A stretch of DNA of 63,475 nucleotides, filler included, from Reclinomonas americana ATCC 50394 (GCA_048213135.1; 6 parts of 4 records of this genome joined end to end with filler, not necessarily neighbours in it), one strand, 5' to 3'. Counted from the whole stretch's first letter, positions 2,471 through 63,053 are shown. The notes: generated from the sequence alone by a model not told the origin. Made by a program: numbers and translations.

Positions 2471-5400
2471 ATGTTGCGTTTCCCCTCTCACACTGTCTCC
2501 CACTCCCTCTCTATGCCTCCCTCTCCCCTCTCCTCCTTCACCACATCGTGCATCCTCTTCCTCAATGCGAGGAGTTGTCGTCAAAGTTTGCTCACACATA
2601 CTCAAACTCACTCTCACTCGCGCGTGCATGCAGGCCGCCAAAGAAGGAAAAGAAGGAGAAGAGCTACGAGAACAAGGATCGCTCCGAGTGGGTGAACCCG
2701 ACGCCGGTGGGCGAGCGGAAGGGTGAGTGTGCGGTGGTGGGGACATTGTGACTGACTTGCCCCCTAAAAACACACACACACGAAAGAGGAAGTGCACGCT
2801 CTCTTTCTGATGCACATACTCCAATTGCTGTGTGCTGTCTGCGCGCGCTTCGCACTCCACGGCATTCACGTGCACTTTGAGCAAAAGAAAGCGTGCACAT
2901 GTCTGCGTCATGGCTCACTCTCACACACATTTTACACACAGATGTGAGTGGCGAGATGGAGGCCGCGTATGATCCGCAAAAAGTGGAGGCTGCGTGGTAC
3001 GACTGGTGGGAGCGCGAGGGCTTTTTCCGCCCGCAAGAGCGTCGACCGGGCGCCGGCACATACACGGTGGTGTTGCCGCCGCCGAATGTGACGGGTTCGT
3101 TGCATCTCGGCCACGCACTCACCGTGTCCATTGAGGATGCTATTTGCCGATGGTGAGTCTGAGGCAGAGGGAGGGTAAAGGGGAAGGGATTTGTCTCCAA
3201 GTTGTCATAGGCATTGTCTGCTCTCTTTCTGTTTCACTACTTTTCTCTCTCACGCGCGAAGTCTCACCGTGAGTGCTTTCTCTGTACCTTTCTTCCCCCC
3301 CTTTCTCTCCCCCGTTCCCCCTCTTCCCCCTTCCGCTTATCTCCCCCTTTCCCTTCTCACAGGCGCCGCATGAAGGGCCAGGCCGTGGAATGGCTCCCCG
3401 GAACGGACCACGCCGGCATCGCCACGCAGAGTGTGGTGGAGCGCAAGCTCTACATTAGCCAGGGCAAGACACGCCACGACCTCGGCCGCGAGGCTTTCGT
3501 GCAGGAGGTGTGGAAGTGGAAGGACGAGTTGCGTTCCTTTGCCTTGGAGAAGACTTTGCGTGCTCTGTATCCTCACTGTGTGTGCGAATACAGGTACGGT
3601 GGTCGCATTCACAGCCAGCTTCGCCGCACTGGTGCGTCGCTCGACTGGGAGCGGTGTTTCTTCACGCTGGATGAGGTTTGTGTTTCAAAATCGTTCGCAA
3701 CGTCTCCTCTCGTTTCTCATCTTTCCTTGTCCGCAGCCGCGCGCCGCTGGTGTGGAGGAGGCCTTTATCCGCATGTTCGAGCAGGGCATCATTTACCGCG
3801 CCAACCGCCTGGTGAACTGGTGCTGCGCACTGCGCACTGCCATCTCCGACATTGAGGTGTGCTTTTGTGTGTGTCGTCATTGCTGCAAAGTCGGCGAGAT
3901 CACTGACTTCTTCTCTGTTGTAGGTGGACTACATTGATGTGGAGCCACTGCAGAAGCGCAAGTTCCCTGGCCACGACTCGGCTGCCGATTTCGGCACCCT
4001 CACCTCATTCGCCTACAAGGTGGAAGACTCAGGTTCGTGAGGGCGCTGGTTAATGAGAGTGTCATTCTCTCATCTCATCTTTTACGAATGCAGAGGAGGA
4101 GATTGTGGTGGCCACCACCCGTCCGGAGACCATGCTCGGCGATACTGCCGTGGCGGTGCACCCAGAGGATCCCAGATACACGCACTTGCACGGCAAGTTT
4201 GTGGTACATCCGTTCAACGGCCGTCGCATTCCCATCATTACGGATGCGGTGCTCGTGGACATGACGTTTGGCACAGGTGCGTGAGAGGGGAAGAGAGGGA
4301 GAGAGAGAGACGCATAGTTTTGTGCGTGTATATGTGTCGCGCCGGATCTTCCTTGTGTACTCGGTCCTTATCTTCCGCCATTCTGCTCTCAATCCTCCTG
4401 CTCCTCTCTTTTCCCATCATCCTGTTCTCAATCCCCCCAGCTACCCCGCTGATCTCAATTCGTATCCTATCCTTGTCTGTTCAATCCTTCACCTCTCCGT
4501 TCTCACCCTCTCTCTAGACTACATCCGCCGCCCTGTTCCACTCTGTTCCTCTCAGTCTCTCTCGGCTTCTCCCTCTGCCACCTCCTTCTCTCTTTCTCTC
4601 CTTCTCCCTCTTCACTCTCTCGCTTCCCTTCCATCCTCTGCTCTCCTCCTTCACCTGATTTTGTGTGCTCAGCTCGCGTCCTCTCCGCTCCCGCCCTTCT
4701 ATTCTCCGTCCTCCTCTTCTCCTCCTTTCCCGCCCTCCTGTTCTCAATCCCCGCTAATCCTCTTTCGTATCCTCTCCTTGTCCACACTGTTATTGTCAAT
4801 CCTCCTCTCCGCTCCCGCCCTCTTGTTCGCGAACTCCATCCACCGCCCTTTCCACTCTGTTCCTCTCTGTCTCTCTCCCCTTCTCCCTCTTGTTCAACCC
4901 TCATGCTCTCACTCTCCATTCCCTCTTTTCCGCCCATCACCTTTACCTCCTTCTTCCCCCCTTACCGTCCCTCCTACCCTCCCTCTCCCTCATCACCCCC
5001 TTCCCCTCCACCGCACAGGCGCCGTGAAGATCACCCCGGCCCACGACCCGAACGATTACGAATGCGGTCGCCGCCACAGCCTCGAGTTCATCAACGTGAT
5101 GGACGACGACGGCCTGATCAACGACAACGGCGCCCCGTTCACCGGCATGAAGCGTTTCGATTGCCGTACGGAGATTGTGAAGAAGCTGGAGGAGAGGGGT
5201 CTGCTGCGTGGCATCCAGGGCAACGCCATGCGCCTCGGCGTGTGCTCGCGCTCCGGCGACGTGATTGAGCCCATGCTCCGCCCGCAGTGGTACGTGAACT
5301 GCTCGGAGATGGCCGCGCAAGCGGTGCAGGCGGTGCGCGTTGGCGACCTGAAGATCATTCCCTCGTCGCACAACGAGACGTGGTTCCGCTGGCTGGAGAA

Positions 5401-8400
5401 CATTCGCGACTGGTGCATCTCACGGCAGTTGTGGTGGGGCCATCGTATCCCCGCCTACCTCGTGTGGCAGCGCGGTCAGTCAAGACCAGAGGTTTGTGTG
5501 TGGTTGTTTGTATTGGTTTGATGATTCCTTGATCTCACGGGCGGCTGGCTGATTGCAGAGCACGTCCATGGACGCCTGGTTCGTGGGACGCAGCGAGGCC
5601 GACGCCAAGGCCAAGGCCGCCGCCAAGTTGGGCGTGCCGGTGGAGGAGCTGGAGGCGGAGCAGGTGCGTGCGATGGACAGGGGATTGGAAACGACAGTGT
5701 TTGCTTCTGCTCTTCTCATCACTGCCTCTTTCTCTTCCTGTTGCTGCCTTCTGCCCTTCTCCGTCACTGCTTTCTCTTTTGTCACTGTCTTCTGCTCTTC
5801 CTCATCTCTGTCTCCTGCACTTCGCCGTCACTACTTCCCCCTTCTGTCATGTATCTGTCATCACCATGTCAAACTCATGTTCGTCTCATTTCACTTGTCT
5901 CTATTCGGATCGCTCTCACTGTGTTCCTTTTCTTGGATGTTTCTTGCATGTCGAGAAACTCCTTTCCTTCACTGCACCGCCTTCCCCCATATCCTCACTT
6001 TCTCTATTTCCGACCACAGGACCAAGACGTGCTGGACACGTGGTTCTCCTCGGGCCTGCTGCCGTTCACGGGCTACCACTGGCCGCACACCGAGCACCCC
6101 GACTTTGAGCAGTTCTTCCCCGGCAGTCTGCTGGAGACCGGTCACGACATTCTGTTCTTCTGGGTGGCGCGCATGGTGATGATGAGCCTCAACCTGACTG
6201 GCAAGCTGCCGTTCACGGAGGTGTTTTTGCACTCGATGGTGCGCGACCGACAAGGTCGCAAGATGAGCAAGACCCTCGGTAATGTGGTGGACCCGATTGA
6301 TGTGATGGAGGGTATTACGCTGGAGGTGAGTGTGGGAGGAAGGGAGAGGGTGGGGAGAGGGAGACTGCTCGGGGTGATTCATTTCATTTCTCTGCTCTTC
6401 TGGGTACGTGGACTCTTGTCTGTTTGTCTCCACGGTGCGATACTTTTGACTCCATCTTTCTCTCGCTCGTAGTCGCCTCGTGTTACTGTGCTGCATTCTT
6501 GTCTATTTGTCTGCCGCGTGTATGACTCTTTTCTGTGTCTCTTCCTGCGTTGTTGGCGTGCTGGAAATTGTGTTCATTGTGTTGCTTGAGTTGTCATTCT
6601 CTCCGTATCTGTCGCGTCGTCCTCTGCGTGATGTGGATTGCGTCTTGTCTGTTTGTCTCCACCTCACTCTCTTATTTTACCATGCTGCGTGGGTGCGATA
6701 CTCTTCACTCTTTGCTTCCTTGTATATTTGTCGCTTCGTGATCAGTGTGCTGCAGAGTGCGTTTTTTGTGGCTCTCTTGTCTTTCCATTAACTGCGTTTG
6801 TGTGACACTCCTGTCTGTTTGTCTCCGCCGCTCTTTCTCTTCTACCCTCCCCTCTTCTCCTCCTCCTCCTGCTCTCCTCCTTTGCTCACCCTTCCCTTAT
6901 CATGCACAGCGACTCAATCAGAAGCTCTCCGAGGGCAACCTGGACCCTCGCGAGGTGGAGCGTGCGAAGGCCGGACAGGTGCGTTGATCCTGTGCTCTGC
7001 AGCTGATGCTGCTTTGCACCGCACTCAAACCCCCTCGCAGAAGCAAGAATTCCCGCGTGGAATCGCCGAGTGCGGCTCCGATGCTCTTCGTTTCGGTCTG
7101 CTGGCGTACACCGCACAAGGTACAACGTTGTTGAGCTGAGTCTTTTGGCAATTGCGCTCAATGTCTATGTGTGTGTGCAGGCCGCGACATCAACCTGGAC
7201 ATTCAGCGTGTGGTGGCCTACCGTCAGTTCTGCAACAAGATGTGGCAGGCCACCAAGTTTGCTCTGTCCATGCTAGCCGACTTTGACGCGCCGGCCGCCG
7301 ATGCTGTGCTGCAGGTGTGTGTGGCTCATTGTCATGGTGCCTTTTGTCGTCGCTGATTCTCACGCTATTGCAGACGGACGGCCTCGCCCTTATCGATCGA
7401 TGGGTGCTGAGCCGATTGAACTCCACGGTGCGCTCGGTGAGCGAGTCGCTGGAGGCGTACGAGTTTGGATCGGCCGCCAGCTCCATGTACTCGTTCTTCA
7501 TGGACGAGTTGTGCCCGGTGTACATTGTTGCGTTGCTGGGCCCCACTCCGCAATCGATTATCGCTGCTTGTTATCTCACGACGCGCGAGTGTAGGAGGCA
7601 ATCAAGCCGGTGTTCCGCGCCGACGGCAATGTGGATGACAAGCGTCGCACGCAATTCGTATTGTTGCGTTTTCACAGTCTCTGAGAGAGAGAGTGTGTGT
7701 GTGTGAGGGGGAGGTGCCGACATGATGTTTCAAACAATCTATTTCACTCTAACTGACGTATTGAGATGATAACGTTTTTTTCTGATTGGCCTTGTAATGA
7801 GCACTTGAGAGAAAGCGGGAATGAGAGGAGACTGTTTCCGCTAATGCGCTATATTTCTTTGTGTCCGCCAGGTACACGGTGATGGACAACATTCTGCGCC
7901 TGATGCACCCGTTCCTGCCGTTTGTGACGGAGGAGCTGTGGCAACGGTTGCCGGGCAAGTCGGCGCTGCCGGCCGGTGCGTGCTCCATTATGGTGCAGTC
8001 GTACCCGGAGCCGAACGCGGCGTGGCAGTCGGGTGAGACGGAGGAGCTGGTGTTCCACGCGCTGGAGACCGTGCATGGCGTGCGCTCCATGCGCGCTGGC
8101 TTCGAGATCAGGCCCAAGGATCTCCTGACTGTGTACGTGCGCTGTGCCGACGAGCCTCTGCTGCGCGGCATTCAGCAGACGGCGGATCTGATTGCGGCCC
8201 TGGCGTTCTGTGCGTCGGTGACGGCGATTCCCGCGGGTGAGCGCGCACCACCCGGCTGCGCGGCCATGGTCATGTCCGACAAGCTGGAGGTGTTCCTTGG
8301 ACTGGAGGTGAGGAGATCTGAAAGAGAGAGAGAAGAGACCCAAGGGGATTCGCGTGCTGTGTTTGTTTTTGTCCTTGTCGACAGAGAGATGCAGATCGAG

Positions 8401-9803: not shown

Positions 9804-10184
9804 ATGATCGTCGCGCGCTGGAAGCTGCTCTCGCTGGCGGTGCTGCTCTCTGCACTGATGTTTGTGGTGGTGCCGGCTGTGGCCAAGTGGGAGTGTCCGT
9901 CTCCGGGTTTTCCCAAGTTTCGTCGCGGCTCTCTCTCACACTTTGCGCGCATGTCCACCGACTGACCCCCAACTCACTTTCTCTCGCTTCCTCTCTCTTT
10001 CTGTAATCTGTGTGTGTGTTTCGCGATGCAGGTTCGACTGCCCGTTTGTGCCTGCATCGCCGATGGTCCCCGACGATGTAAACAAACTGCGCCCCGGCGA
10101 CATTCAGGCTGTCATGGCCATGGGTGACAGGTGAGAGAGTGGAGAGGGAGAGTGGAGAGCAGAGGGAGAGAGGAGTGCAGAGAG

Positions 10185-10219: not shown

Positions 10220-10265
10220 AACGTGCCGCATGTGAGGATCTGCATTTCGAACACATGTATTCGTT

Positions 10266-10316
<51 letters not shown>

Positions 10317-17897: not shown

Positions 17898-21808
<3,911 letters not shown>

Positions 21809-23979: not shown

Positions 23980-24099
23980 TGAACGCCGACTCTAAACGAG
24001 GGGAGAAAGCAAGCACAAAGGCGCCGACTGTATCATTCACTCAACACCACAGCCATTGCCACTCAAACACAAAGAAGAAGAAGAACAAGAACAAGACCA

Positions 24100-43116: not shown

Positions 43117-46100
43117 TCAGCGATTGCGAGACTTGTCACAAATGTGGTTCAGCTTGCGCGCGTGATCCAGCTTGTGGGCTTGCGTTCGGCATTCACGGCC
43201 CCACCTACAGTCACGGCGGCGTGTGCGTGTGTGAGGAGAAATGACGGATCTCTGCATGTGGGCCTCGCTCGGCACACGCACCAGCAGTTCGATCGATTCT
43301 TGGCCCAGTCGGGCATGTCGTCCTTTGTCAGTGCGGCACGGTACTGGTACAACAGCTCGGAGAACACGGAGAAGCAGCAGTTGCGGCACACGTACAGATC
43401 AGCGGTGACCGGGTTGCCGTTGCGAACTGAGCGCGACACGCAGACAATGGAGTCAACTACTGTCGTCGAACACGCGAATCAAGATGTACGCAACCCAGTG
43501 CCATCTCGTGATCGCGCAGGCGCTGCACGCAATCCTGGAACACATCGTTCGGTGTCAAGCCGCGCTGCGTCATGTGGTAGCGCACAATCTCCATCTCGGC
43601 GGGGTTGCTGTTGAGCGCGGTGGCCGGCAGCGCATCCATCGACCAGTCACCGAGCTTCTTCAGCGCACCGACCGCGCCCGACGCACACCCACCAAAGTAC
43701 TGGTCGCACATGAATATGCGGCAGAGGCCACCTGGGATGCACGTCAGCATTCTCCTGCATCACAATGTGGCCGCAGAGTTGCGCACGCAACAGGTCTGCA
43801 CACGCTGACAGCCGGCATCACGCATCGGCATGAGGCTGCGACAGAAGCCGCAGTACACATGTTGACCGGTGCACTGGAAGCCATCGGGGCCTGAGTGGAA
43901 GGGGAGATAAGGAGATTGGCACATACGGACGAAGGGAAGAAGAAGAACGGTCATCGCACCTGCAGCAACGCACTCGCGACACGTGGGTCGACCGAAACGC
44001 GGAATGTCGTCGTCGTCGTCACTGCCACTGTAGTCGTCCGAGTCCTCGTCGTCGCTGCCGTAGTCGTCGTCGTCGTCGCCACTGTCATCGTCATCGCGGC
44101 GACGGCGACCCACACGCATGCTGTGATCTCTGCCGGTGAGCCATGCACCTTGCGAGATTGATGCGCAGAAGAACCACACACCTCTCCGACGTGATCATGT
44201 TCATCTTGTCCAACTCGGCAATGTCGTCGGGTGAGCGCTTGGCCTCCGGATGTGACTGCCGAGAGAAGCAAGTGACGTGAGCAGAAGGAAGAATGGAAGA
44301 GAAGAGACCATGATGTGGTGCACCTCCAGATACGCCTCCACCACTGCAAACCAAGCGATTCGGTGAGACCCAGGGAGGAAAGAGTGACATCGACGGTATG
44401 GTACGCAACAATTGCTAACAGTGTGATTGCGGTGCACGACCTCAACACGACGGCGGCATTGCGGGCACGTCTTGTTGCTCTTCAGCCACTGGCTCATGCA
44501 CGGCGCACAGAATGTGTGCATGCCTGTCACACAAATGTCAACTCGTGGCAGTTCACATTCACACCTGGGAGAGCGAACGCAACAAGGCATGGCCGAGACC
44601 GCCAGGTACAAAACCTCGTAGCACACCGGGCATTGCAGTTCCGACTCGAGTTTCTTGTGCTGTGCACACACACACACACATAGTTGTGAGCGACAGCGAC
44701 TTTACACAAGAATAAGAAAAGAATGTGAGTGTGTCACGCACCAGACGCNNNNNNNNNNNNNNNNNNNNNNNNNNNNNNNNNNNNNNNNNNNNTTAATTAA
44801 TTAANNNNNNNNNNNNNNNNNNNNNNNNNNNNNNNNNNNNNNNNNNNNGTGTCGCTGCTGGACGAGCCAGCAGCGGCCGACGCCGACGCAGGCGGCGGCG
44901 CAGCGGCCGAAGCCGCCGCCGACTCACCCACTTTGCGGATTTTGGTCGGCGGCTGACCATCATCGTCGGCCGCATCCAGCGTGGCCAGCAGCGGTGCAGC
45001 GGAGGGCGAGTCCGCCGTCGACAGCGAACGCTTGCGCTTGATCAGGTACGGCGACTTGTGCATGCGATCCTGCATGACCACCGTGTACGACGGCAACGAA
45101 TCCACGACAGCCGCAGGTGCTGCTGCTGCTGCTGCTGCTGCCGACGGCTCACCGCGTGGCGGCAAGCACAGCGACACCACATCATTGTGTCGCAGCGACA
45201 CGGACTTGTTCTTGCCGACAGCGGTGCAGTTCACAAACGTGCCGTTCGTGCTGCANNNNNNNNNNNNNNNNNNNNNNNNNNNNNNNNNNNNNNNNNNNNN
45301 NNNNNNNNNNNNNNNNNNNNNNNNNNNNNNNNNNNNNNNNNNNNNNNNNNNNNNNNNNNNNNNNNNNNNNNNNNNNNNNNNNNNNNNNNNNNNNNNNNNN
45401 NNNNNNNNNNNNNNNNNNNNNNNNNNNNNNNNNNNNNNNNNNNNNNNNNNNNNNNNNNNNNNNNNNNNNNNNNNNNNNNNNNNNNNNNNNNNNNNNNNNN
45501 NNNNNNNNNNNNNNNNNNNNNNNNNNNNNNNNNNNNNNNNNNNNNNNNNNNNNNNNNNNNNNNNNNNNNNNNNNNNNNNNNNNNNNNNNNNNNNNNNNNN
45601 NNNNNNNNNNNNNNNNNNNNNNNNNNNNNNNNNNNNNNNNNNNNNNNNNNNNNNNNNNNNNNNNNNNNNNNNNNNNNNNNNNNNNNNNNNNNNNNNNNNN
45701 NNNNNNNNNNNNNNNNNNNNNNNNNNNNNNNNNNNNNNNNNNNNNNNNNNNNNNNNNNNNNNNNNNNNNNNNNNNNNNNNNNNNNNNNNNNNNNNNNNNN
45801 NNNNNNNNNNNNNNNNNNNNNNNNNNNNNNNNNNNNNNNNNNNNNNNNNNNNNNNNNNNNNNNNNNNNNNNNNNNNNNNNNNNNNNNNNNNNNNNNNNNN
45901 NNNNNNNNNNNNNNNNNNNNNNNNNNNNNNNNNNNNNNNNNNNNNNNNNNNNNNNNNNNNNNNNNNNNNNNNNNNNNNNNNNNNNNNNNNNNNNNNNNNN
46001 NNNNNNNNNNNNNNNNNNNNNNNNNNNNNNNNNNNNNNNNNNNNNNNNNNTTTGCAGAGAGTGGTCAGCACATCTCCACACACCTGCACACTCCTGCACA

Positions 46101-46590: not shown

Positions 46591-48150
46591 ATGACTGCAG
46601 TTGCGCGCTCACCACTCTCACTCTTTGCTCACTCACATACTCACTGTAATCAGGTGCCCACCTTTGGCCACGCGCTTGGACGCGAGCATTTCGGCTTGGC
46701 GGCGACCTATCGCAACTTCAATCATGGCTCGTTCGGGTCGGCTCCTCGCGCAGTCACCTCTGCGCGACGACGATACGAGGACTTGTGTGAGGTGCGTCTC
46801 CTTCTCTTTCACACACATCTCCTTGGTGTCTCAATGCTGGCGTGCAGGAACGCCCGGATCGATGGTTCCGCGAAACCTTTTACCAACTGTGTCGTGAGTC
46901 GCGTGAGGCACTGAGCGCCTACCTCAACGTGCCGGGATCTGTCGATGATTTGGTGCTGGTGGAGAACGCGTCCACGGCGGTCAACTCGGTGCTGCGATCG
47001 ATGCAGTGGAACGAAGGCGATGTCATTCTCTACTTTTCCAACACGTGCGTGCGCTCTCGAGAAGCTTCTGTTGCTCAACTGAGAGACTCTCGACTCGACT
47101 TACACTCTTCGCCTTTGTTCCGCAGGTATCCCATGATCCCGTACACGGCAGAGTGGATTCGCGATCTGCAGTCGTATCGTGTGTCGCTGCGACTTGTCAC
47201 GGTGCCGCTGCACTTCCCGCTCGTGGACAAGGAGTCGGTGTTGGGGCCGCTGCGTGAGACGCTGCAGTCGCTGGTTGCGGAGGGCGCCCGGGTGCGTGTG
47301 GCGTTTGTGTGCCACGTCAGCTCCATGCCGACGGTGGTGATGCCGGTGCAAGAGATGGTGGCCGAGTTGCGCGGCTCGGGCGTGGTCGACAGTGTGTTTG
47401 TGGACGGCGCGCATGCCATTGGGCAAGTGCCGATCGACCTCACGGCCATGGCACCCGACTACTACACCGCCAACTGCCACAAGTGGCTGTACGCGCCCAA
47501 GGTATGTGCAAAAGAGACACAAGATCGCCGCTTCGAAGACTGAGATGTAAAACGCAACACAGGGCGCTGCCGTGTTCTATGTGCGCCCCGAGTTGCAGAC
47601 GGAGTTGTCGCCGCAGCCGACGGTGATCTCCAGCACTGGCATGCGCGGTTTCGTTGACCGCTTCGCGTACACGGGAACACGCGACTACACGCCGTTCACC
47701 TCGATCAAGGACGCGCTGCAGTTTCGCAACGAGGTGTTGGGCGGCGACGAGGCCATTCGTGACTACGTGGGCGAGCTTGCACGCTGGGCGGGTCACTACC
47801 TCGCCGAACAGTGGGGCACCAGGGTGCTTGTGCCTGACGGCATGGTGGGTCGGGCGAGGAGGGGGGTTGATGACCACCATGTCACTGCACGCTGACATCT
47901 TCTTGATTTCCAGATTGGTTTCATGACGAATGTGGAGCTGCCGGTGCGCAGTTTCGCCGAAGCGCAGCGCCTGCAGGAGCGTCTCGATAAGCAGCACGAC
48001 GCGTACATGACGGTGCTGCAGGTGGACGACATTGTGTACAGCCGCATCTCGGCACAGGTGTACATGGAGAAGGAGGACTATCAGTGGCTGGCACGCATGG
48101 TGCCGGAGGTGCTGGCGTCGATGCGAGAGGGCGAGGCCGGTGAAGCATGA
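46591..48150 (+). CDS. Class-V PLP-dependent enzyme (L-cysteine desulfhydrase / Egt2 / isopenicillin-N epimerase-like)
   Basis: FNHGSFGSAP, VENASTAVN, VDGAHAIGQ, YTANCHKWLYAPKG, YTGTRDY, RISAQVY. Confidence 0.9.
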
Positions 48151-48250: not shown

Positions 48251-51200
48251 CTAGCGAGCGGAGGCAGCGGCCGCTGGCCGCTGCGGGGTGTGGTACAGAT
48301 TCGGGTCATTGCTGGTGGCAACTCTGGCGGCGGCACACGTCGGTGAGTTCCTCATATCGCAGAGCAAGCAGAGATGGCACGCAACAACAGCCGCAACTTC
48401 CTGCTGAGCTCCTCCAGCACGGCCTCACGCTCCTCAGCGGAGAGCGACTGTGGGGAGTACGATCGGAAAATCATCTGGTTGTCACTCGAATCCTGTGGCA
48501 GGTCGGGCAGCGTCCGCTCAAGCGGTGGACCGCCGACCCACAGCGGTCGCGACGATTGCCTGTGGCGACAGCGAGTGAGTGGGCGGTTGGATGAACGTGT
48601 ACATGGCAGCACTCTCACCGAGGCGGATTGTGCAACACGTCGCCAATCGCCACCAAGTCAGGCGTGTGCACTGCGCGCTGACCCGACAGCGCCTCGTACA
48701 ACTGCTTCTTCTCTGATCGGATGGCCTTGTTGATGGCCGGAATGCCTGCAATGCTGTGAGGACGCCACATACACACGGAACGAGCACCTCTTGATCAACG
48801 CAACATTGCCGAGGAATGGCGCCCGTCTGCACCATTTGCACCAAGTCATCCAGTGCCTTCACATGGCGCTCGGTGCTCATTGTTTCCGCTGGCGCATTCG
48901 CTGCTGCTGCTGCTGCTGTCGTCGCTGTCGTGGTGGACGACGAGTCAGCATTGCCGTCGGCAGCGGTGGCCGAGCGGAACGCACGCCCACGGGCCGTCAT
49001 GCGCGACCCGTTGTCGGAGGAAGCGACTGGCGAGTGTGGTGTTCGTCCACTGAGAGGTGGAGGTGCCGGTCGAGCACCAACTGCTGCAATAGCGGCAAGG
49101 AAACAGTGTGAGACGCCAGCCGACAAGGATTCCCACTTCGCCAGCTGACAAACCCAGGAGCGACGTGGGAGTGGCCAGGCGCTGCAATCCAGTCGGTAGT
49201 GTCCGTGGTGTCTGTGCCACGGTCGAAGCAGACGACAGCGGCATCTCTCTCCGCTGTCGGCTGTTGTGACGGTCGCTCACGGGTGGCAGATTCGGGGCCG
49301 AGTGCGCGGTCCCCGGCACCTTGCCCATCCTGAATCGCAACACAATGAGAAGGAGGGGGAACAAGAATCAGGCAGCAGCAAGCAAACTTACATTGTGGAG
49401 GCGCTGGCGGCCGTAGCCGAGCGTGTGGTGGTCGTCCCGGACATGGGCTGGCCCCACGCCGACGCCGATCCGAATGCCACCATCGGTGACGGCTCGGGCA
49501 GTGGTGCACGCGGTGGACTCGCCTCAGTCACGTCGGGCAGGAATTCGGTGAACTCCAGAATCGTGCGCTTCGCAATCACCTCCTCCAGCACAAACGTGTG
49601 TCGAAGTCGCGGACCACGCATCGTGCGCGCCGATTGCACTCCGTTCTGATGCACCGACGACTTGATTCCCGCACCAAAGCCATCCTCGTCGTCCATCTGC
49701 TCTCGCCCACGACACGGAGTGGTGAGGAAGGATGAGCAGGCAAGGAGTCAGAGATGGAAGCGAGTGCGTACCGCTCGCATGCCAGCAAGCCGGAGAGAGG
49801 GCACGGAAGGTGGTGGGTGTCGCGTGCCAAAGGCCAGCGGTATGCCGGTGCCACGGGAGGCACTCGTGGGCGACACAATCTCGGGTCTCCGCGTCGACTG
49901 CGCTGACGGTTGTGGCTGCGGCTGCGGCAGCGGAAATGACTGCCGACTCCTCCGTCGCTGTCCCTGGCGACCAGACGAGTGCGCAATGTGCATGTTGACC
50001 ACGGTCGGCACCGACAGGTCGGCGTTGCGTTGAATGCCGGTGGCTGTGCACCATGAAGAGGTTTGGTCGGTGACGGACGGAGAAAAGGGGAATAGCGTAG
50101 CACACAAACCAGTCACTCGCGCCGAAGGCACCACCGAGGCTCCTGTCGTCGACTCCCCTTGTTGCTTTCTGTGCTCCAGGTCAGTGGATCGGAGAACTGC
50201 TGCTGCTGCTGCGCACGCGATCCACCACGCACCTCTCCAGCAACTTGCGCACACGGCGAGCGCGCTCCGTGGCATACTGTTGCCGCATTTCACGCCACGT
50301 CGGGAAGGTGCGCTCCAGCAGCGACTTGGCGAGGTCGTAGTACTCTCGCGAATCAACCGAGTCCGTCCAGGCTGTGTGCGCACGCGCACGTATCAGCACC
50401 ACACGTTGCGAGAACACAGAAAGCAGAAGAGTGTAGGCGAGGCGCAACTGTCGATAATCTCAAACATGGAATCGAAAAAGAGCGCAAACGTGATGAATGG
50501 TTCGTGTGTGCGATCCTGGTCCCACTCCGCCTGTGTGCAGATCGTGAGTGAGGCTGGAAAGAGCTGGTAAAGACGCGTGCATGCACAACGCAGTCGCACC
50601 TCGAGAAGCCTGTCTATTTCCGCACTGGTGAAGCCCACCATGAGCGTGCTCAACACTTGCGCGAAGAACATGCGGTACTCGCCGCGCGAGAGCACGCCAT
50701 CGTAATCCGCGTCGGCGCATTCCCAAAGCTGTGTAGAGTGAGCAAGGGAGGATGTGAAGAGTGGAGAGTGGACGAGGATGGCGCACCGCGTGAAACACAT
50801 CAGTCAGCTGCGGGTCGCGGTACGTTCGTGCACGCTCCACAGCCGCCACCTCCGTGTGCTTGTTCACAGCACTCTGCCGCCAGGCCGGTAATTGTACAGC
50901 GCTGCCGCGAGATCGCAGAGTGAGTTGTAATGCGAGACGACAATGGGCACGGGCACGGCACGCACGGATCGTACTCGATCTCGACCTGACCAGACTGCAA
51001 CAACTCGTACATGACAAGCTTGTCTGCGCACGCCAGTTCACATGTGAGATGATTGCGGTCACGGAAAGGACAGCAAGCGACGCAGACTATACACAACATC
51101 TGTCGACACGCTCCCGCCGCGAGTAGGCCGACGAGAGGAAGAGGGAGCCCTTGAGCACCCCACGCTGCGCATGCGAGTGAGAGGCGAAACTTTAGACAAA

Positions 51201-52985
51201 GAAATGCGAAATTGTCGTCCACACCTGCTCTCCCACTGCTCGACTGAGGCCGGCAGGCGGTGCCAGTGGTGGCACAGTGCCCGGTGTGCTGCTCCCCTTG
51301 GCCTTCTTCTTCTTACTCTTCTTCTTGGCACTCTTGTTCTCTTCCCCATCGCCATCCGCCGCGTCGCTACCGTGAGACGCAACCAGCGGCTCCACGCGTC
51401 TCCGGGGCAGCGCGGCGACTGGTCGACCATCGGCCGTCGTGGCGGTGGTGATGTTGAAGTTGGAGAGCGTGGCCGGCCCGCCGTCGGTGGATGAAGGTGC
51501 GCCGTCGCCCGAGGTGGGGTTCTGGAGAGGGAAGGGTAAGAAGGGCGTGAGAAGTGCATCGAAGTACCGACGCGGAAAGACAGTGCAGCGGGGATCGTAC
51601 AATGAGAGAAAGCACAACTTGCGGAAACAACGACGAGTGTCACAAGAGGGCGACTCAAGGGAGTATCGGAGAGTACGAGGAGGTGCTTGCAGAAGGGACG
51701 AGCAGAATGATCGCACAGGAGAAGAGCATCAGAGGGGCGGGAAAGAGTCACGCAGCACGGGGGATCGCAGAAGGGGAGAGAAGAAGACCGCGCGAAGGGA
51801 CGAGACTGAATCGCACAGGGTGCATCGGAGAGGGGTGATTGAATCACACCGAAGTGTAAAGGAATCGCGAATGAATCACACAGGAGTGACAAGGCAGCGC
51901 GACAGGGTTGAATAGTACCGCGAAGGAACGAGAAGCGCATATACAGAGGGTGCGAAGAGGGATTGCGAATGGTTGAGAAACGCACTGCGAACGCATCGCG
52001 AAGGGATGACAAACACATCGCGAATGGTGAGACTCAATCGCATCGGAGTGAACAGACATAGCGAGCGCATGAGAAGCGCACAACAATCGCGAAGGGAAGG
52101 AGAACGGAGTGCAAACGGGTTGTAAAGTATCGCAAAGGAACGAGAACAGTTTGCAGAGGAGACAGACGCGCATCACAGAGCGATGGGTTGAACAATGTGA
52201 ACAGCTGAAAAGTATCGCGAAGAACGAGAAGTGCATCATGGAGGGTGCGAAGAGGGATCGCGAGCGCAGGAGAAACGCATCATAGAGATGTGAAGAGCAC
52301 ACGCATCGCAGAGACGCAAGACACGCGCATCCACGGAAAGGGATCGCTGCCACAGTTGACCTGCAGCAGTCGATATCTCCCCAAACAAGCAGAACATCAA
52401 GCGCGGTAACTCACTGTCGGTTCTCCATCCACAGCAGGCGCAATCTCCGGCGGCGCTACACCCCACAAAAAGCGTCAGACACTTATATCTCGGATAAAAA
52501 AAAAACCCAACCAACAAATAAACACATGAATGAAGCAACAATGAGGCGCAACAATGATACGCGTTTTCTGTGCCAAGCAACTGCGCTCGGAGTGCGCCCG
52601 TCCACGAGCCCACTTGCACAATGTCCAACACCAAAAGCTGAGAGAGAGTGAGAAAAAAGACACAAGAGAGAGTGAGAGAGACACACTTGAGCACGTGCCT
52701 GCCAGAGAGCACATTGACGAACAATGGCGCTGTTGTTTGAATGAGAGAGAGAGCGTGTGAGTGTGTGTGTGAGAGAGAGGAAAGAGACGTCGCACTGTCT
52801 TTTTCTCTCACTCACCGACGACGTTGTACTGTAGTCGGTGACGCCTGATTGGCAGCAGCTGTCCCACCACCGCCACCTCCTCCGCGACTGAGAGAGAGAG
52901 AAAGAGAGAGTGAGTGCGTGGAAGTCAGACGCGTGCTCACAAACAGACGACGAAACTAAGATCGCGGGGAAGGCATCAGCTCCAT
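48251..52985 (-). CDS. Large multi-exon protein with an EF-hand-like region and long low-complexity tail; 5' exons uncertain
   Basis: LWECADADYDGVLSRGEY...FFDSMFEIIDTWTDSVDSREYYDL; chain of GT-AG-bounded open exons. Confidence 0.6.
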
Positions 52986-53151: not shown

Positions 53152-54985
53152 ATGGTGGTGCGTTTGTGTGAGAGTGAGAGACAAGAGTGTGTGTGTGTGT
53201 GTGTGTCAGGCAGCACAGAGGAGAAGAAAGAGTATCGGACAATATGACTTTTATCACAGAAAGTCAGAGTGATTGAGAAGAGAGAAGAGCTCTCTCTGTG
53301 TCTTCTCTGTCTGTCTCTGTGTGCATGTTCAAGGCGTGTTGTTTGACTCTGTTTGTGATTTTTTGTGATTTATAGGGAGTGATTCTTGCGACATCGAGTT
53401 ACGATCATACGATTCGGTTGTGGGAGGCTCCGAGCGGGATTTGTTATCGCACTCTGCAGTATCAGGATAGCGTTGCGTTTCTCTCTGTGTGTGTGGGTGT
53501 TGGGGCAGAGGGAGGGCGAGGGAGGGAGGGAGGAGTGGGAGGGAGGGAGGGAGAGAGAGAAGAGCAGAGGAGAGACGTGCGCTCTCTCCATGCTCCCTCA
53601 GTCTGCTAGTGTGTCACCTCCCTCTCTAACTACGAGACGAACAGATGTGGGGACAAGAAAGTGCGTTCTGAGCGAGAATGCATGAGAGGGAGAGCAGAGA
53701 GAGAGAGAGAGAGACCTGCGCTGTTCCTTTCCCACTCTTCCGCATCAGCTTGTGTGTCACCTCCGTCTCTGACTACGAGACGAACAGATGCGGGGACAAG
53801 AAAGCGAGAAAGCACGAGAGAGAGGAGCTGTGTGCTCTTCCTTTCCCACTCTCTCTCAGTCTGCATGTGTGTCGCCTCCCTCTCTGACTACGAGACGAAC
53901 AGATGCGGGGACAAGAAAGCGAGAAAGAGGGAGATCGTCTCTCGTTCTCACTCCGTCTCAGTCTTCTTGTTTGTCGCCTTGCTCTCTGCGTACTGACAAG
54001 AGACAAGAAGAGTGTTCTGAGCGAGAATGCAAGAGAGGGAGAGAGGCCTGTGCTCTCCTCCCACTCTCCGCAGTCTGCTTGTGTGTCGCCTTTCTAAAGC
54101 AAGTGAGAAAGACCAGGAAGAGAGGCCTGTGCTCTCCTTCCCACTCCTCAGTCTGCTTTTTCTCTGAATGCGAACGGGTGAGATGCGATCTGAGCGAGAA
54201 AGCAAGAGAGGGAGAGCAGAGATAGACATCGTCTCTCGTTCCCACTCTTCTCCAGTCCGCTTCCTCGCTGTGTGCGAACGGTAGAGTTGTGGAGACAAGA
54301 AGTATGTTCTGAGAGGCACCGTCTCGCATGCCCTTGCTTGTGTGTGGCGTCACTCTCGGAGCACGACGTGGCATGTCTGTTCCCCGTCGCTCTCCACTCA
54401 CTCTCTCTCTCTCTCTCTCCCAACCTTGCAGCAAGTAAACTGCCTGTGCACCACCCCCGACCGCCAGTTCCTGGCCGCCGGTGGCCATTCACATATTCGC
54501 CTGTTTGATCTCAACTCGAAGAACCCACAGCCGGTGCGTTTCTTTCTTGACCTGCTTCTCCTCCCTTGTCAAGTCCTCAAGCGCACGCCACGATGCAGGT
54601 GGCCAACTTTGAGGGGCACACCAACAATGTCACCTCGATTGGGTTTCAGCGCGACGGCCGGTGGATGTACAGTGGATCGGAGGACGGCACGATTCGTGTG
54701 TGGGATGTGCGGTGCGTGTGTGCCTGCGTGCAATGTGTCACATGGCGTGTTCTGTGGACTCACTGCTTTCATACACACAGAACAAGTCAAGTGCAGCGGG
54801 AACTGAAGCACAGCGCGGCAGTCAACTCGGTGGCGCTGCATCCGAATGAGGTTTGTAGTGGGGTTGGCGAGTCATTCGTCCCATTTTCTCACATCATCTG
54901 TGAGCAGCGGCAATTCTTCTCTGGCGACCAACATGGTAATATTCGCGTGTGGGACATCAACATGAACGAGTGCTCGCTCGAGCTG
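53152..54985 (+). CDS. LST8: TOR complex subunit LST8, 3' truncated at the scaffold end
   Basis: [39 protein letters not shown]...[31 protein letters not shown]. Confidence 0.97.
53560..54300. repeat. Degenerate intronic tandem repeat in LST8 intron 2
   Basis: Core ctacgagacgaacagatg(c/t)ggggacaagaaag recurs near 53630, 53773 and 53888, with more diverged units after it. Confidence 0.8.
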
Positions 54986-55162: not shown

Positions 55163-55262
55163 NNNNNNNNNNNNNNNNNNNNNNNNNNNNNNNNNNNNNN
55201 NNNNNNTTAATTAATTAANNNNNNNNNNNNNNNNNNNNNNNNNNNNNNNNNNNNNNNNNNNN

Positions 55263-57849: not shown

Positions 57850-60398
57850 ATGAGTGCACGCAGACCCACTCCTGCCGCCGCTCCCAGACGCGCCGTCTAC
57901 GACATGGGTGATGACAGCGGCGACATTGGAGAGGACGAGGTCACGTTTGGCGACGACGACGATGGGTTTGTGCGGAACGACGACGGCGACGACGATGATG
58001 GCGACAACACCGATGATGATTTCGTGAGTCGAGTGGCGCCTCCACGCTCGGCGCTGAGCAGCAGAATGCCACACGACACTCCTGGTGCGGCGGCGGCGAC
58101 GGCGGCGGCGGCGGCTTCGTCAGCGACGGGAAGCGCACGCGGAGCAACAGTGTTTCGTTCATCTTTGTTTGTTTGTGTTTCATCCTCGCGACTCAACCCC
58201 TCGCCGGTGCTGCGCAGCGACGACCGCAATCGAGCAGGTTCGCGGCCGACCAGTGCCACCAGCAGTCGACGACGAGTGGTGATCGCCACTGGATCGGCAC
58301 CATCGTCGCACAGTGCATCGTCATCGATTGCCTTCACTGGCGACGATCAGCAGCAGCAGCAGCAGCCTGCGTCGGCGGCAGTGGCCAATGCAGCAGCTGG
58401 ACGCACGGCGGCCGAGGTGGAGGAAATGAGCCGAGCGCTGCGTGCGCTCATTTCGGGAGAGGCGGCGGCGGCGACGGCAGCGGAGAAGAACGCCCGTGTC
58501 AAGACATCGGTGTCGGGCGCCTGGCTCGGCTCTCATCAGTACTCGAAGGACTCCCCACTGGACGGTCCGTGCGCATTCGCCTGTCCTTGTGCCGTCTCTG
58601 TCTCCTAACACATGCTGCTGCTGCTGCTGCTGCGCAGTTTCGGGCTTCTCGGCCAGTCGACCTCTGGCCGATCCGATGCGTGGTCGCATCAACACGGAGG
58701 GTCTGCCCGACCCAACCGCGCAGCAAGGTGCGTGTATCACTGGCTCGCAGAACGTGCTCTTGCTTCCGCTACTCACAGTCTCGGCGGTGCAGGACGATCA
58801 TCGAGTCCCTCTCCCTTTCCAGGTGCTCGCCGCACCGTCACCGTGCAGTACGGTCCCGGCACTGGTGGTGCCGCCAGCCCACCAGAGCTCGATCGTTCAG
58901 CATCGGCTCCAAGCTTTAGCAGACCAGCGTCTGCATCTGGATCCTTCTCGTCCACCGTCCCTGCTGCTCTGCGCGATACGGCGCTGCAGGCGCTGCTGGA
59001 GCAGCTGGAGTTGGACGACACCGATGCGTCCACTGCTGTGTCGGAGGGCCACCGAAGTCGCACTGGTGAGCGTGACTCGCGAATGCGCACAGAGGGAGGG
59101 AGAGAAAGTGCATATAACTCCTCATGTGCGAATTGTAACTCGCAGATCGACGCGGGTGGGCGCCTCATGTCGACGTGCTGGTGACCATGGAGGAGCTGTA
59201 CTGCCAGCTGCGTGATCGTGACGAGGGACTGGACAACCTGCTCCGTGCGGAGGAGGAGCGCTGGGTGTCGGGCTTCGAGACGGAGGTGCCAGAGTTTATT
59301 CGTCAGCGGTCTCGCATATTTTCGCACTTGGATCCCTCGCAAGGCATGTTCAAGGATGTGAATCGGCTGAGTGAGGAACTTGTCCGCCGGCTGGGGTCGC
59401 TCTTTGAGGAGATTGTCAGTGTTGGCGCCAAGGTGAACGGCTCAAGAGCCGACGGTGACGGGTCGACATTTGTCGGTGATGAGGTGCGTCGGAGGAATTT
59501 TGGCAACCGTGTGTGATGAGAGACACAAAAGCGTTCTCATGTCGTCGTCACATGCACAGCGACGTTCGGAGCTCACCGAAGAGTACGAGGCGGAGTTTCG
59601 CGCACTCATGCTGCAGTTCCGACAGCGCATTGAGGTGGGGTCGAGAATCAACCAGAGTATCGCTTGGTCCGAAACTCTCTCACCTCTGCACTGCAGGGCC
59701 TTGTTCGCGATTCACCATTCGTGCTCGGCATGGAGGATCTGCGTCTCAACTACTTCCGCCACGAATTGCTCAAGCAAAGGCGACTCCTGACGCACCTGTT
59801 CGACAACCTCAACGCCGTGAAGGAGACGGAGAATCAGCTGCGGCGCGACTTGCGCAAGGCCGAACAACGCATTCAACGGCGAGACCAGGTCGGTGTTTTG
59901 CAATTGTTGCTACTCGTTGCCAGCCGCACCACCGCTCACGGATCAGTGTTGTAGGTGTTGGACGAGCTGCGACGAAAGTTCATTCAGGAGATTATCGTGT
60001 CGCGTGAGCAGTCGCTGATGGCCACGGCCAAGTCGCGCATTCAGATGCAGACGCAAATGTCCGACGTCATCAGCCTTCTAGATTGGCGCACTGTGGTGGG
60101 TGAGGACTCTGTTGGTGGCCACGAGGAGTGTGTGCGCATGCGCACGCTTATTCTGCGGGAGAAGGAGGACTTGGAGAAAAAGTATGACCGGCTGAAGGCC
60201 GAAATGGCAGTGCTGGGCAGCGGCAATGTCGTCGCCACGGGCGATCGCCGGACGCCGGGCGACGCGTCGCACGATCATCCACGTGGACCACTGCTCAACG
60301 GGGTGCATGCCGATCAGCTGAGTGCCGTGAATCTGGTCCGGCAGGAGATGCAGCGCGAGATGGACGAACTGCGTGAGCATCATCACTTTGAGCGTCAG
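57850..60398 (+). CDS. Unknown low-complexity and coiled-coil protein; probably continues in inverted contig 60426-61170
   Basis: About 9 GT-AG-bounded open exons with heptad-like segments such as LNAVKETENQLRRDLRKAEQRIQRRDQ. Confidence 0.7.
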
Positions 60399-60425
60399 GT
60401 TCGTCNNNNNNNNNNNNNNNNNNNN

Positions 60426-61170
60426 GCGGTCCCTGTGCCGTGGTCGACTTGGTGGTGCCGCGAGCCGAGATGAACATGCTCTTGCTGCGGCCTGCGTGCG
60501 CCAACGGCACTTTGCCGGAGCCTTTGCCGCCGACCTGTCGAAAACAACGACGACAAGTGAGGAAACACACACTGTTTGAGAAAAAGAACATCGGGGGGCT
60601 GGTTACTCACCGGTGGCGCATCCTCGTCGGCGAGTGTGGAATCAGTGTTGGGCGCCTCGTCCTGGTCGCCCTCTTCCTCCTCCTCCTCCTCTTCGTCATC
60701 GTCTTCGCCCTCCTCTTCCTCATCGTCTTCGAGTCCCTCGCCAGTGCCGCCAGCTTCCTCCTCCTCTTCCTCCTCGTCTTCTTGGTTGCGGCTACCGGCT
60801 CGACCCTCGTCGTCGTCGTCGTCCTCGTCGTCGGCAGGGGGTGCCGAGTCAGTCTGCCGCGACCCTCCGTCTTCGTCATCAATGTCTTGCGAGGCTGCAC
60901 TGAACTGGTCGCCGACATCGTCGTCGTTGGAGGAGAGTCCAGCGCTGGAGCGACCCGATCGTGCGTCAGGTGGTCGCAGATACGACATGACGTGCTGCGA
61001 GATAGTGGCGCGGAGGGGAATCAGAAGAACAGCACGAGGCACATGTGCGGTACTGTGAGAAAACGCACAGGTCGCCGATTGTTGCTCCCGCCATCGTCCT
61101 CGTCGGCGTCCCTTTGAGCCAGCTGCTGCTGCAGCTGCGTCAACTGCTCTTTCAAATCCTCCATGTCGTG
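60426..61170 (-). CDS. Acidic/coiled-coil exons, probably the continuation of the 57850 gene
   Basis: HDMEDLKEQLTQLQQQLAQRD... then an Asp/Glu-rich exon ending at G|GTGAGT; bounded by gaps. Confidence 0.55.
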
Positions 61171-61513
61171 NNNNNNNNNNNNNNNNNNNNNNNNNNNNNN
61201 NNNNNNNNNNNNNNTTAATTAATTAANNNNNNNNNNNNNNNNNNNNNNNNNNNNNNNNNNNNNNNNNNNNGAGAGAGAGAGAGAGAAAGAGAGAGACAGA
61301 GTGATGGAAACAGAGTGACACACAAATAGAGAGAGAAAGACACAGAGACCGACACACATAACAAAGAGATAGAGAAAGAGAGAGCGACACACAGAAAGTG
61401 AAAGTGAAAACGAGAGACACAAAGAGAGAGAGAGGGCGACGAACACGACACACACAAAAGGAGAGTGTAGAAACAGAGAAACAGAGAGAGAGAGAGAATT
61501 CTCTTCTCCTAAA

Positions 61514-63053
61514 CCCTTGGTGATTGTGGACGCAACTGGCAGCCACCTCGCCACCCTCCTCGCGGACGGCGACACCCTCAGTGAACACCTGGGGGTCGAC
61601 GACCAGGCGGTAGCCGACAACCTTGGTGATGACCTTCTCAATGGCGAACTCCTCAAAGCCAAACAACGTCTTCTTGGCGGTGAAGGTGTACACAAACTTG
61701 CCGAGCTTGTCCAGGGTCTGGGTGTTGGCGCCAATGTAGCCGAGAGCCTCGTCGTTCCACTGCAGCTTGTCAGTGGCGGCCTCCTCGTCGTCCTGACCCG
61801 GCAGCTGGATCTTCAGCTCGACCGTGAGGCTCGAGTCGAAGACGTTCATGTACTGCAGGCGCGAGGCCGTGCGGAGCTGCGTGCCCAGCACCACCTTCTC
61901 GGCAGTGATCGGGCCGCTGACGCCCTGGAAAATCGTCACCATGGCGTCCTCGAAGAACTGGGTGAGCTGGCCGCTGTAGGCCAGGGCCACGCAGCCGGCG
62001 TAGATGTCCTCCAGGCGGGGGAGGGCGTTGGCGTGCGCAAAGCCGAAGCCGCGGAGCTTCTTGGCGTCGACTTCCTCGTTGGCGCTACGAGGGGAAAGGG
62101 GGATGTGAGAAGGGGGAAGGAAGAGGGAAAGGCAAAGGTGGAAAGAAAGGCAACAGATGCGGAAAAATGTAACACACTCAGAAAAAATCACAGAAAAAAG
62201 TGAGAGACACGAAGAATGGTTACCAGCAGGGAAAACCGCAGCCAACAAGCGAGCAAGGGAGGTGAACACACAGATGAAACAGAGCCAGAGAGTGCGAAAA
62301 AAACGCAACACACTCAGCTGAAATCACGCGGAAGAAAATGAGTGTAAAGAGACAACGATAGTCGGCAGAGAAAGGGAGAGAGAGTGCAAACCAAATGTTG
62401 CAAACATCACGGAGAAAAATGACTGTGAGACAAAGGAAGCGAGCAGCAAGTGCCTCACAGAGAAAAAATCTTTCGTACCTCCCCTTTCCCTAATCTCCCT
62501 TTTCCCATTACGCAACTCCAGCACCGACAGCGTGAGCGCCACATAGCTGCTGCCCTCGACAATACCGTCAGCGTGATCGCCCGACAGCTCAAAGCCGCCG
62601 TTGCTAATCTGCGCGGCCTTCAGCGTCTTGATCATCGCGTCCTTGTCGAACTTGGCCTCGGCGTGCACCGCCAGGTACGTGCCGACGTAGTTGTCCTGCA
62701 GGCGCGGTGCGGTCTTGTCCAGGCGGAACAGACCGTCCTCACCCTGGGCCGGGAGCTGCACACGAGAAGACGAAGGTAAGGGAAACGGGAGAAGCGGGAT
62801 TTAGTTTGCGTGCCAGTGACAAACCTGAGAGCGCACACCCGCGAGCGCGGCCTTCACGGCCTCATTGTCGAGCTGGTCGAGCGCCTCGTAGATGCGGATG
62901 GCCGCCGCAGTGGCCTGCAGGTCGGCCTTGGACTTGCTGTCGGCGGCAAACAGACCCGAGGACGAATCCTGCAGCGTCTGCACGTAGCTCAGAATGCTGT
63001 CGGTCGACGGCACCGCAGTCGAGCCCGAGTACAGCACGCCCAGCACGGCATCG
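61514..63053 (-). CDS. Internal exons of a protein with prenyltransferase-like helical repeats followed by a beta-rich domain; possibly ribophorin II/Swp1-like
   Basis: ILSYVQTLQDSSSGLF...IKTLKAAQISNGGF repeats and strongly C/G-ending codons. The family assignment is by impression only. Confidence 0.5.

Follow-up and report, generated by a model that had tools for sequence, protein, structure and literature searches.

Introduction

How is the start of an intron recognized when the exon before it does not end in G? The question is raised by a 63,475-base stretch of DNA from Reclinomonas americana ATCC 50394 (GCA_048213135.1), hereafter the window, in which many introns begin with GTTGCG. The choice of a 5′ splice site (5′SS) is usually credited to pairing with one near-universal 5′ end, that of the U1 small nuclear RNA (snRNA); off-register sites pass for rare curiosities, and +1 shifted sites are rare in mammals. 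In the window, which is gene-dense and intron-dense eukaryotic DNA (26 N runs with 5,976 N in total; GC 57.5% of called bases), an off-register motif serves about one fifth of the introns without predicted binding of ordinary U1. An earlier note had listed 31 such motifs (25 GTTGCG, 2 GTTGAG and 4 GTTTCG) with coordinates and strands; all of them are present, and 0/31 are preceded by G. Here we ask whether they are donors, whether they form a class of their own, and what might read them.

A second, abundant class of donors

The window was parsed with a semi-Markov gene parser agnostic to the donor motif: it scored coding frames, intron composition (with the first 8 intron bases unscored) and the acceptor, and asked of a donor GT or GC alone. 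This agnostic parse returned 122 introns and recovered 15 of the 31 listed sites. Its commonest donor hexamer was GTTGCG, which accounted for 15 of 119 GT donors as compared with 72 of the 7439 GT hexamers in the window (0.97%; p = 9.8e-13). An expectation-maximization (EM) mixture of two position matrices and a background, fitted to 118 agnostic donors, reached one optimum in 10/10 restarts; its components read -2A -1G/GT(G/T)NG(T) (41%) and (A/T)/GTTGCG(T/C) (19%), a slash marking the cut. We refer to donors of these two kinds as class 1 (GTNNG) and class 2. The claim that GTTGCG donors do not follow an exonic G is borne out by the agnostic set, in which -1G was found at 0/16 class-2 and 43/54 class-1 donors (p = 5e-9). 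Because G precedes only 7 of the 72 GTTGCG occurrences window-wide, this absence of G stands out strongly by comparison with class 1 but only moderately by comparison with background.

When donors were scored with this EM mixture, the resulting refined parse contained 155 introns, reproduced all ValRS donors pinned by homology (below) and recovered 25/31 listed sites. Frame logic was looked at for the six that it missed, at 29462, 33076, 35069, 35230, 18690 and 52956(-). Once genes scoring below 25, introns shorter than 40 nt and donor contexts containing N had been removed, a catalogue of 136 introns remained, whose -1 counts are partly circular because the donor score includes positions -3 to -1:

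Class 1 (GTNNG): 91 introns, 81 with -1G
Class 2: 26 introns (19%), with -1 T in 13, A in 12, C in 1 and G in 0
Other donors: 19 introns

The claim about -1 is therefore carried by the agnostic and the homology-pinned sets. The class-2 share, 26/136, agrees with the "about one in five" of the earlier note. Besides G, C is also rare at -1 of class 2 (1/26 in the refined catalogue). On the intron side, class 2 had U at +3 in 100%, G at +4 in 88% and C at +5 in 92% (24/26), with +5 G in 0%. GTGCGT led the hexamers of those class-1 donors that have -1G (18/81), and the minor class-2 variants GTTGAG and GTTTCG mirror class-1 GTGAGT and GTTCGT. Class 2 was poor in phase 0 (phases 0/1/2: 5/14/9 versus 46/30/16 for class 1), a shortage that fits introns sited where a codon cannot end in G. 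Class-1 donors without -1G in well-scoring genes were all GTGCGT, at 20170(+), 41694(+), 47045(+), 50965(-) and 61068(-), which hints at a C at +4 adding binding energy; the excess of GTGCGT among class-1 donors without -1G was not significant (5/10 versus 18/81, p = 0.115).

In other respects the two classes are alike. Downstream of the listed motifs, as in other introns, the sequence is rich in pyrimidines, contains CTCAC-like branch motifs and ends in CAG or TAG. YTVAY occurred in the last 50 nt of 22/26 class-2 and 66/91 class-1 introns, the 3′ ends of class 2 were CAG or TAG in 25/26 and similar in class 1, and length, branch motif and 3′ end showed no difference between classes. By these sequence features class-2 introns appear to be major-type (U2-type) GT-AG spliceosomal introns. 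An introner or other repeat-derived origin was considered and rejected, the 26 class-2 introns sharing only 15-20-nt low-complexity matches. The motif complement CGCAA occurred within the same intron in 5/26 class-2 and 8/91 class-1 cases.

Class-2 junctions pinned by protein homology

Genes were assigned via Pfam on stop-to-stop open reading frames (ORFs) of the window. We fetched homologues for three of them (120 ValRS; 120 slipin/Band_7, mostly bacterial slipins; 14 CHFR-like) and made family hidden Markov models (HMMs) from 79 ValRS, 117 slipin and 8 CHFR-like sequences. For each junction, every donor/acceptor pair that lay no more than 40 to 45 nt to either side and kept the frame open was spliced, regardless of its dinucleotides, and the peptides were HMM-scored. 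The junction in LST8 was placed by aligning its flanking exons to chain 5fvm_C. The following introns were examined in this way:

3528..3593, + strand: class-2 intron in ValRS, cga/GTTGCGTT...CAG; HMM rank 1/2418, spliced 141.7 versus retained 120.3 bits
7527..7594, + strand: class-2 intron in ValRS, att/GTTGCGTT...TAG; HMM rank 1/1400
7663..7871, + strand: class-2 intron in ValRS, att/GTTGCGTT...CAG; HMM rank 1/1903
24662..24728, - strand: class-2 intron in slipin/Band_7, gca/GTTGCGTT; rank 5/1872, the top GT/GC-AG pair
25692..25755, - strand: class-2 intron in slipin/Band_7, tga/GTTGCGCT; rank 2/2153, GC alternative 6.3 bits lower
53472..54431, + strand: class-2 intron in LST8, 960 nt, agc/GTTGCGTT; flanking-exon alignment to 5fvm_C
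44524..44583, - strand: class-2 intron in the CHFR RING finger, ctt/GTTGCGTT; rank 2/2287
44344..44409, - strand: class-2 intron in CHFR, att/GTTGCGTA; rank 1/1502, GC alternative 8.2 bits lower
43732..43791, - strand: class-2 intron in CHFR, absent from the earlier note's list, cct/GTTGCGTG; rank 1/1705
43427..43494, - strand: exception with -1G in CHFR, 68-nt intron, tgg/GTTGCGTA; rank 144/2340

In all, 9 class-2 junctions were pinned (8 of the 31 listed and 43791), each a GT...AG intron whose removal restores the conserved frame. The peptide spliced at 3528 aligns ungapped to positions 136-219 of the ValRS profile. In LST8 the exon ending at 53471 corresponds to 5fvm_C residues 3-33 and the exon from 54432 to residues 34-68, and the junction is exact because the two alignments abut (33/34). 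At 44583 the split codon T/GC yields the third zinc-binding Cys, and this is the sole GT-AG intron of at least 40 nt that preserves the RING pattern. The site at 24728 is a near tie, just 0.2 bits over a GC-AG pair 8 nt downstream.

A further 13 donors, at 3153, 3676, 3857, 4033, 4277, 5492, 6326, 6979, 7120, 7315, 25569, 22816 and 43281, were pinned by the same HMM method, and 13/13 follow G. In the pinned set -1G was thus found at 13/13 other donors versus 0/9 class-2 donors (p = 2e-6, hypergeometric, by hand). Left out of this set were ValRS 5664/5697 (rank 230), the second junction of slipin gene B (20-nt micro-exon) and CHFR 44181 (~20 bits). The CAX gene, with 6 listed sites, contributed no pins: its exon query gave no homologue, and the shortness of its exons precludes pins from Pfam or PDB. 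The earlier note had held that conserved protein frames fix many of the sites; homology does fix those in LST8 and CHFR, while LITAF CCL-I-PCC and CAX IVN/YLFIDG were examined by frame logic alone.

Could the cut lie elsewhere? If the true donors were GC, 3 bases downstream (GTT/GCG), GTT would be kept in the exon and the intron would be GC-AG. Such a donor keeps the frame at all class-2 sites, and at 43494, listed as an exception with G before GTTGCG and probably real, it ties with the GT donor (107.3 versus 106.8 bits). At the 7 pinned sites 3528, 7527, 7663, 25755, 44583, 43791 and 44409, however, it loses 4.7 to 8.2 bits relative to the GT donor, and the LST8 exons abut with no added residue. 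We consider GC-AG donors very improbable. Nor does chance, or error in the gene models, offer a credible account of the motif. It could be argued from the 6/31 listed sites that the parsers did not recover and from the 45 of 72 GTTGCG occurrences in the window that are non-donors; against it stand an enrichment found at donors without any motif prior (p about 1e-12) and nine homology-pinned junctions. On this evidence from parsing and protein alignment, the GTTGCG donors appear genuine.

Class-2 donors resemble class-1 donors slid by one base on the exon side

The two classes were compared position by position on the refined catalogue (26 versus 91 introns). The -1 position of class 2 differed from class-1 -1 (p = 8e-17) far more than from class-1 -2 (p = 0.014), and its -2 position differed from class-1 -2 (p = 0.004) and agreed with class-1 -3 (p = 0.53). 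The donor-agnostic set showed an exon-side shift in the same direction. On the intron side, class-2 +4 agreed with class-1 +3 (p = 0.33) and class-2 +7 with class-1 +6 (p = 0.08). The exon positions of class 2 therefore behave as those of class 1 slid one base, and the window contains two real classes that differ at -1 and in a shifted exon context. Class 2 is at the same time far more constrained than a slid copy of class 1.

Predicted pairing with U1

Duplexes with the canonical U1 5′ end, as given in PMC4856993, were predicted with RNAduplex (bulges allowed), using exonic GTs as decoys (n = 1240); all energies are in kcal/mol. The medians were -7.5 for class 1, -1.3 for class 2 and -2.8 for decoys, and the class-2 median was matched by 87% of the decoys, that of class 1 by 3.4%. 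The shifted register offers more pairs than the canonical one at 21/26 class-2 sites (mean Watson-Crick pairs 5.1 shifted versus 3.0 canonical); these pairs are interrupted by two mismatches and have no predicted stability. By this prediction no register, the shifted one included, gives class 2 a stable duplex with canonical U1, from which the host's own U1 may differ. Because the canonical duplex is negligible and most decoys do as well, ordinary U1 in shifted pairing cannot alone select class-2 sites.

These numbers bear on the proposal that one ordinary U1 (and U6) binds class 2 routinely at a +1 shift, helped by proteins of the small nuclear ribonucleoproteins and with no variant snRNA. 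The two motifs and their exon positions do align when slid, most class-2 sites do pair more in the shifted register, and that register is proven in human cells (PMC4856993, citing Roca & Krainer 2009). The human shifted test site of the same paper, however, has a duplex of -6.5 kcal/mol, well apart from the class-2 median, and the near-invariant +4G, +5C and +6G would be left unexplained, the +5C because it would face U1 position 5. We judge this account unlikely. The earlier note had suggested routine shifted pairing, and with ordinary U1 the negligible duplex speaks against it; its proviso that variant snRNAs would be needed is most likely its sound part.

We then modelled altered readers in silico; these models are tests of the idea and not data. 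A model U1 with positions 5-6 matching GCG gave medians of -9.9 for class 1, -6.2 for class 2 and -5.8 for decoys. An 11-mer model that combined the GCG match with an A at position 8 gave -6.4, -10.3 and -4.5, respectively; 0.9% of decoys reached its class-2 median and 20.5% its class-1 median, so that in silico it would be specific to class 2. Rfam revealed no snRNA genes in the window, at the gathering cut-off and at E<=1.

A proposed second reader of intron starts

Since canonical U1 is not predicted to bind GTTGCG at about one fifth of introns, this lineage probably recognizes intron starts in a second, unusual way. The class-2 motif, W/GUUGCG(U/C) with W being A or U, is nearly invariant, and it reads as the commonest class-1 donor, G/GUGCGU, moved one base into the intron, with the intron +1G taking the place of the exonic -1G. 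In the explanation that we prefer, the RNA reading the 5′SS would pair one base off register: its nucleotide for exon -1G would meet intron +1G instead, and cleavage would stay at the sole GU. A nearly invariant motif of such information content would need its own complementary reader, and this would be not ordinary U1 but a U1 whose 5′ end is peculiar to the lineage, or else an additional U1-type snRNA fitted to GUUGCG. As an effect, introns would be tolerated at points of the coding sequence that do not allow a final exonic G. Reader RNA and register are what we infer here, and we hold the explanation as a whole to be evenly poised between right and wrong. A more specific version is a major spliceosome with two readers: a U1-type RNA for G/GUNNGU, and for W/GUUGCGY either a further snRNA of the U1 type or a U1/U6 pair adjusted to it, working one base off register and keeping introns where a codon cannot end in G. 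This version we put forward tentatively, as a possibility that we doubt more than we believe.

Several points, in addition to the partial circularity of the refined -1 counts, weigh against an off-register reader. On the intron side the slide is imperfect: class-2 +5 is C in 24/26 as compared with 34/91 for class-1 +4 (p = 1.7e-5), and class-2 +8 is unlike class-1 +7 (p = 0.004). The one-base slide seen in the earlier note therefore holds for the exon context and for +4 and +7, and breaks down at +5 and +8. In half of the class-2 sites -1 is occupied by U, and in the shifted register this U would face U1 position 10 without pairing. The single model U1 fitted to GUGCGU fails to set class 2 apart, 42% of decoys being as good (class 1: 7.0%). 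Conservation of the U1 5′ end is almost universal, so that an altered one would be unlikely from the outset. Finally, the junctions are called from sequence, the reader RNA is a postulate, and all data come from one 63-kb window. Taken together, the shifted-register reading is partly supported.

Relation to known 5′ splice sites

Human cells are known to use both shifted and bulged registers of U1 (PMC4856993). Like class 2, the mammalian +1 shifted 5′SS (Roca & Krainer 2009, via PMC4856993) keep the GU at the cut site, fit the consensus elsewhere only when slid one base into the intron and have G at +6 instead of +5. As the available text describes them, these are atypical exceptions with a long run of pairing to canonical U1. 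Class 2, in contrast, makes up ~19% of introns, is nearly invariant in GUUGCG and is not predicted to bind canonical U1. It could also be written GU-[U]-GCGU, as a class-1 core plus one U, in the manner of the bulged and asymmetric-loop registers of PMC4856993. A +3 bulge register would still need -1G, though, which 26/26 class-2 sites lack, and RNAduplex predicted no stable duplex.

Two major 5′SS classes have been described, AG//GUNNN on the U5 side and NN//GURAG on the U6 side (PMC11732430; also PMC9803359, PMC11842720 and PMC10581693, as far as their accessible text goes). The split shares with class 2 that loss of the exon-side G accompanies a stronger intron side; class 2 has none of the +5G, the purine at +3 and the A at +4 of NN//GURAG. 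The classes found here are not this known pair, because class 1 joins -1G and +5G and class 2 has neither. A related account would dispense with the shift and take GUUGCG as a signal of its own on the intron side, which U6, U5/Prp8 or a protein would read once U1 has acted, in an extreme case of exon/intron compensation, where a strong intron side makes up for a weak exon side. Such compensation, together with two 5′SS classes, is established (PMC11732430), and class 2 does lack -1G and carry much more intron-side information. The known intron-side class, however, retains +5G, where class 2 has C at +5 and G at +6; class 1 has -1G (81/91) and +5G (all, by definition) together; and the likeness of class-2 -2 to class-1 -3 would go unexplained. 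An independent signal of this kind is in our view improbable.

Atypical donors are known from Mamiellophyceae, namely the GTGCGT(G) consensus of Ostreococcus (PMC2483917) and the AG/GTGCGT of Micromonas (PMC3879977); possible snRNA changes are raised in the former paper. The main class here likewise favours G/GTGCGT, with a +4C that neither canonical U1 nor U6 accounts for. No GTTGCG class is described for these algae in the available text of either paper, and the window here is far more intron-dense.

U12-type introns have an RTATCCTT donor and a TCCTTRAY branch. They, too, form a second, tightly constrained donor class with no need for -1G. Class 2 is unlike them in its GTTGCG donor and in a CTCAC-like branch and 3′ end that are those of class 1.

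We found no description of GTTGCG or GUUGCG donors in the literature, in a search outside of which lay the source organism's genome paper and its supplements. If the class is not already described for this genome, it should be of clear interest to splicing specialists, as a natural system for the fixing of cut sites independently of U1 pairing, for variant U1 snRNAs that define intron classes, and for the adaptation of splice signals to coding constraints. Class-2 junctions would be overlooked or misplaced by gene finders that rely on one donor matrix.

Remaining class-2 candidates

Apart from the pinned junctions, the listed sites and one unlisted site are as follows.

2473..2633, + strand: class-2 candidate at the 5′ end of the ValRS gene, cat/GTTGCGTT; both parsers, unpinned, upstream exon undefined
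9917..10031, + strand: class-2 variant, caa/GTTTCGTC; refined parse only
17968..18206, + strand: class-2 candidate, aga/GTTGCGCA; both parsers
18690..18695, + strand: listed donor gga/GTTTCG; motif present, in neither parse
28537..28703, + strand: class-2 candidate, gct/GTTGCGTG; refined parse, low-scoring gene
29462..29520, + strand: listed donor in the LITAF-like gene, cat/GTTGCGTA; 59-nt intron by frame logic (open frames, CCL-I-PCC), in neither parse, unpinned
31550..31694, + strand: class-2 candidate, gca/GTTGCGTA; refined parse, low-scoring gene
32337..32417, + strand: class-2 candidate in the YccF-CAX gene, ccc/GTTGCGTC; refined parse
33076..33081, + strand: listed donor ttt/GTTGCG; motif present, unrecovered, acceptor ambiguous
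33296..33363, + strand: class-2 candidate, tct/GTTGCGTC; both parsers
33473..33545, + strand: class-2 candidate, tca/GTTGCGCC; both parsers
35069..35150, + strand: listed donor, aac/GTTGCGTG; 82-nt intron by frame logic, in neither parse
35230..35235, + strand: listed donor aac/GTTGCG (CAX IVN/); motif present, unrecovered, without homology pin because of micro-exons
36107..36231, + strand: class-2 variant in the protein kinase gene, caa/GTTGAGTC; refined parse
37921..38003, - strand: class-2 variant in the Erg28 gene, cca/GTTGAGCA; both parsers
38106..38172, - strand: class-2 candidate in the Erg28 gene, cct/GTTGCGTT; refined parse
41887..41948, + strand: class-2 candidate, gct/GTTGCGTT; both parsers
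46600..46653, + strand: class-2 candidate in the aminotransferase gene, gca/GTTGCGCG; both parsers
48351..48385, - strand: listed donor, doubtful, gtt/GTTGCGTG; the refined parse makes an implausible 35-nt intron
50372..50448, - strand: class-2 candidate, aca/GTTGCGCC; both parsers
52888..52956, - strand: listed donor, tta/GTTTCGTC; 69-nt intron by frame logic, in neither parse
58152..58217, + strand: class-2 variant, agt/GTTTCGTT; refined parse
62085..62516, - strand: class-2 candidate, gga/GTTGCGTA; both parsers
61149..61536, - strand: extra class-2 candidate, unlisted by the earlier note, cca/GTTGCGTC; refined parse only, spans an N run

Of the class-2 junctions that the earlier list had overlooked, 43791(-) is the pinned one; 61536(-), 52552(-), 48804(-), 40165(-) and 13913(+) are candidates from the model only.

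Genes and other features of the window

The Pfam assignments gave these genes:

~2.5-9 kb, + strand: ValRS (valyl-tRNA synthetase)
22298-23150 and 24033-27054 (22.3-27 kb), - strand: two slipin/Band_7 genes in tandem
Elsewhere: several WD40 genes, the YccF-CAX transporter, a protein kinase, Erg28, cytochrome c1, CHFR (FHA + RING), a class-V aminotransferase and LST8

ValRS assembled from the parsed exons is a stop-free protein of 927 aa; among the 120 homologues fetched, none exceeds 59.8% identity with it. Of the 80 loci returned when metagenomes were scanned with a ValRS exon, the 8 examined (L001-L008) included no close relative: identity was at most 69%, GC was 31-53%, and the ValRS matches were few-gapped or interrupted by stop codons only. 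The C-terminal arm of ValRS that binds tRNA (Pfam Val_tRNA-synt_C, HMM positions 961-1018) lies at 9130-9571 on the - strand, the rest of the gene being on the + strand. This segment is bounded by 20-N gaps at 9110-9129 and 9572-9591 and is most likely a small scaffold piece set in the wrong orientation. The ValRS intron 4277-5018 (+), 742 nt long and with ordinary signals, falls within a 418-codon stop-free frame, 4265-5518, that runs on into the frame of the downstream ValRS exon; its lack of stops could be due to chance in GC-rich sequence, or the segment could be an optional insert. Inside the class-2 intron 7663-7871 there is a weak match to SNORD26, box C/D snoRNA-like, at 7717-7790 (+), with 25.2 bits and E = 0.45, below the gathering score.

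One slipin exon is 62-66% identical to slipins of 255-262 aa, of which those named by organism come from Verrucomicrobiota, and the slipin genes contain spliceosomal introns of both donor classes. An old bacterial transfer with later duplication is a candidate origin for the tandem pair.

Weak, miRNA-precursor-like Rfam matches, far under the gathering scores, occur on both strands at 10249-10466 around a 20-N gap at 10342-10361; they suggest a long inverted repeat around the assembly gap, possibly an assembly artefact. A pattern of 44 N, 12 called bases and 44 N recurs at 27259-27358, 40005-40104, 44749-44848, 55163-55262 and 61171-61270, and looks like an artefact of masking or assembly rather than biology. 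Micro-exons of 20-35 nt are common, for example in slipin gene B at 22609-22628 (-), in the LITAF-like gene at 29521-29548 (+) and in CHFR at 44309-44343 (-), and they break simple exon-to-exon chaining by homology.

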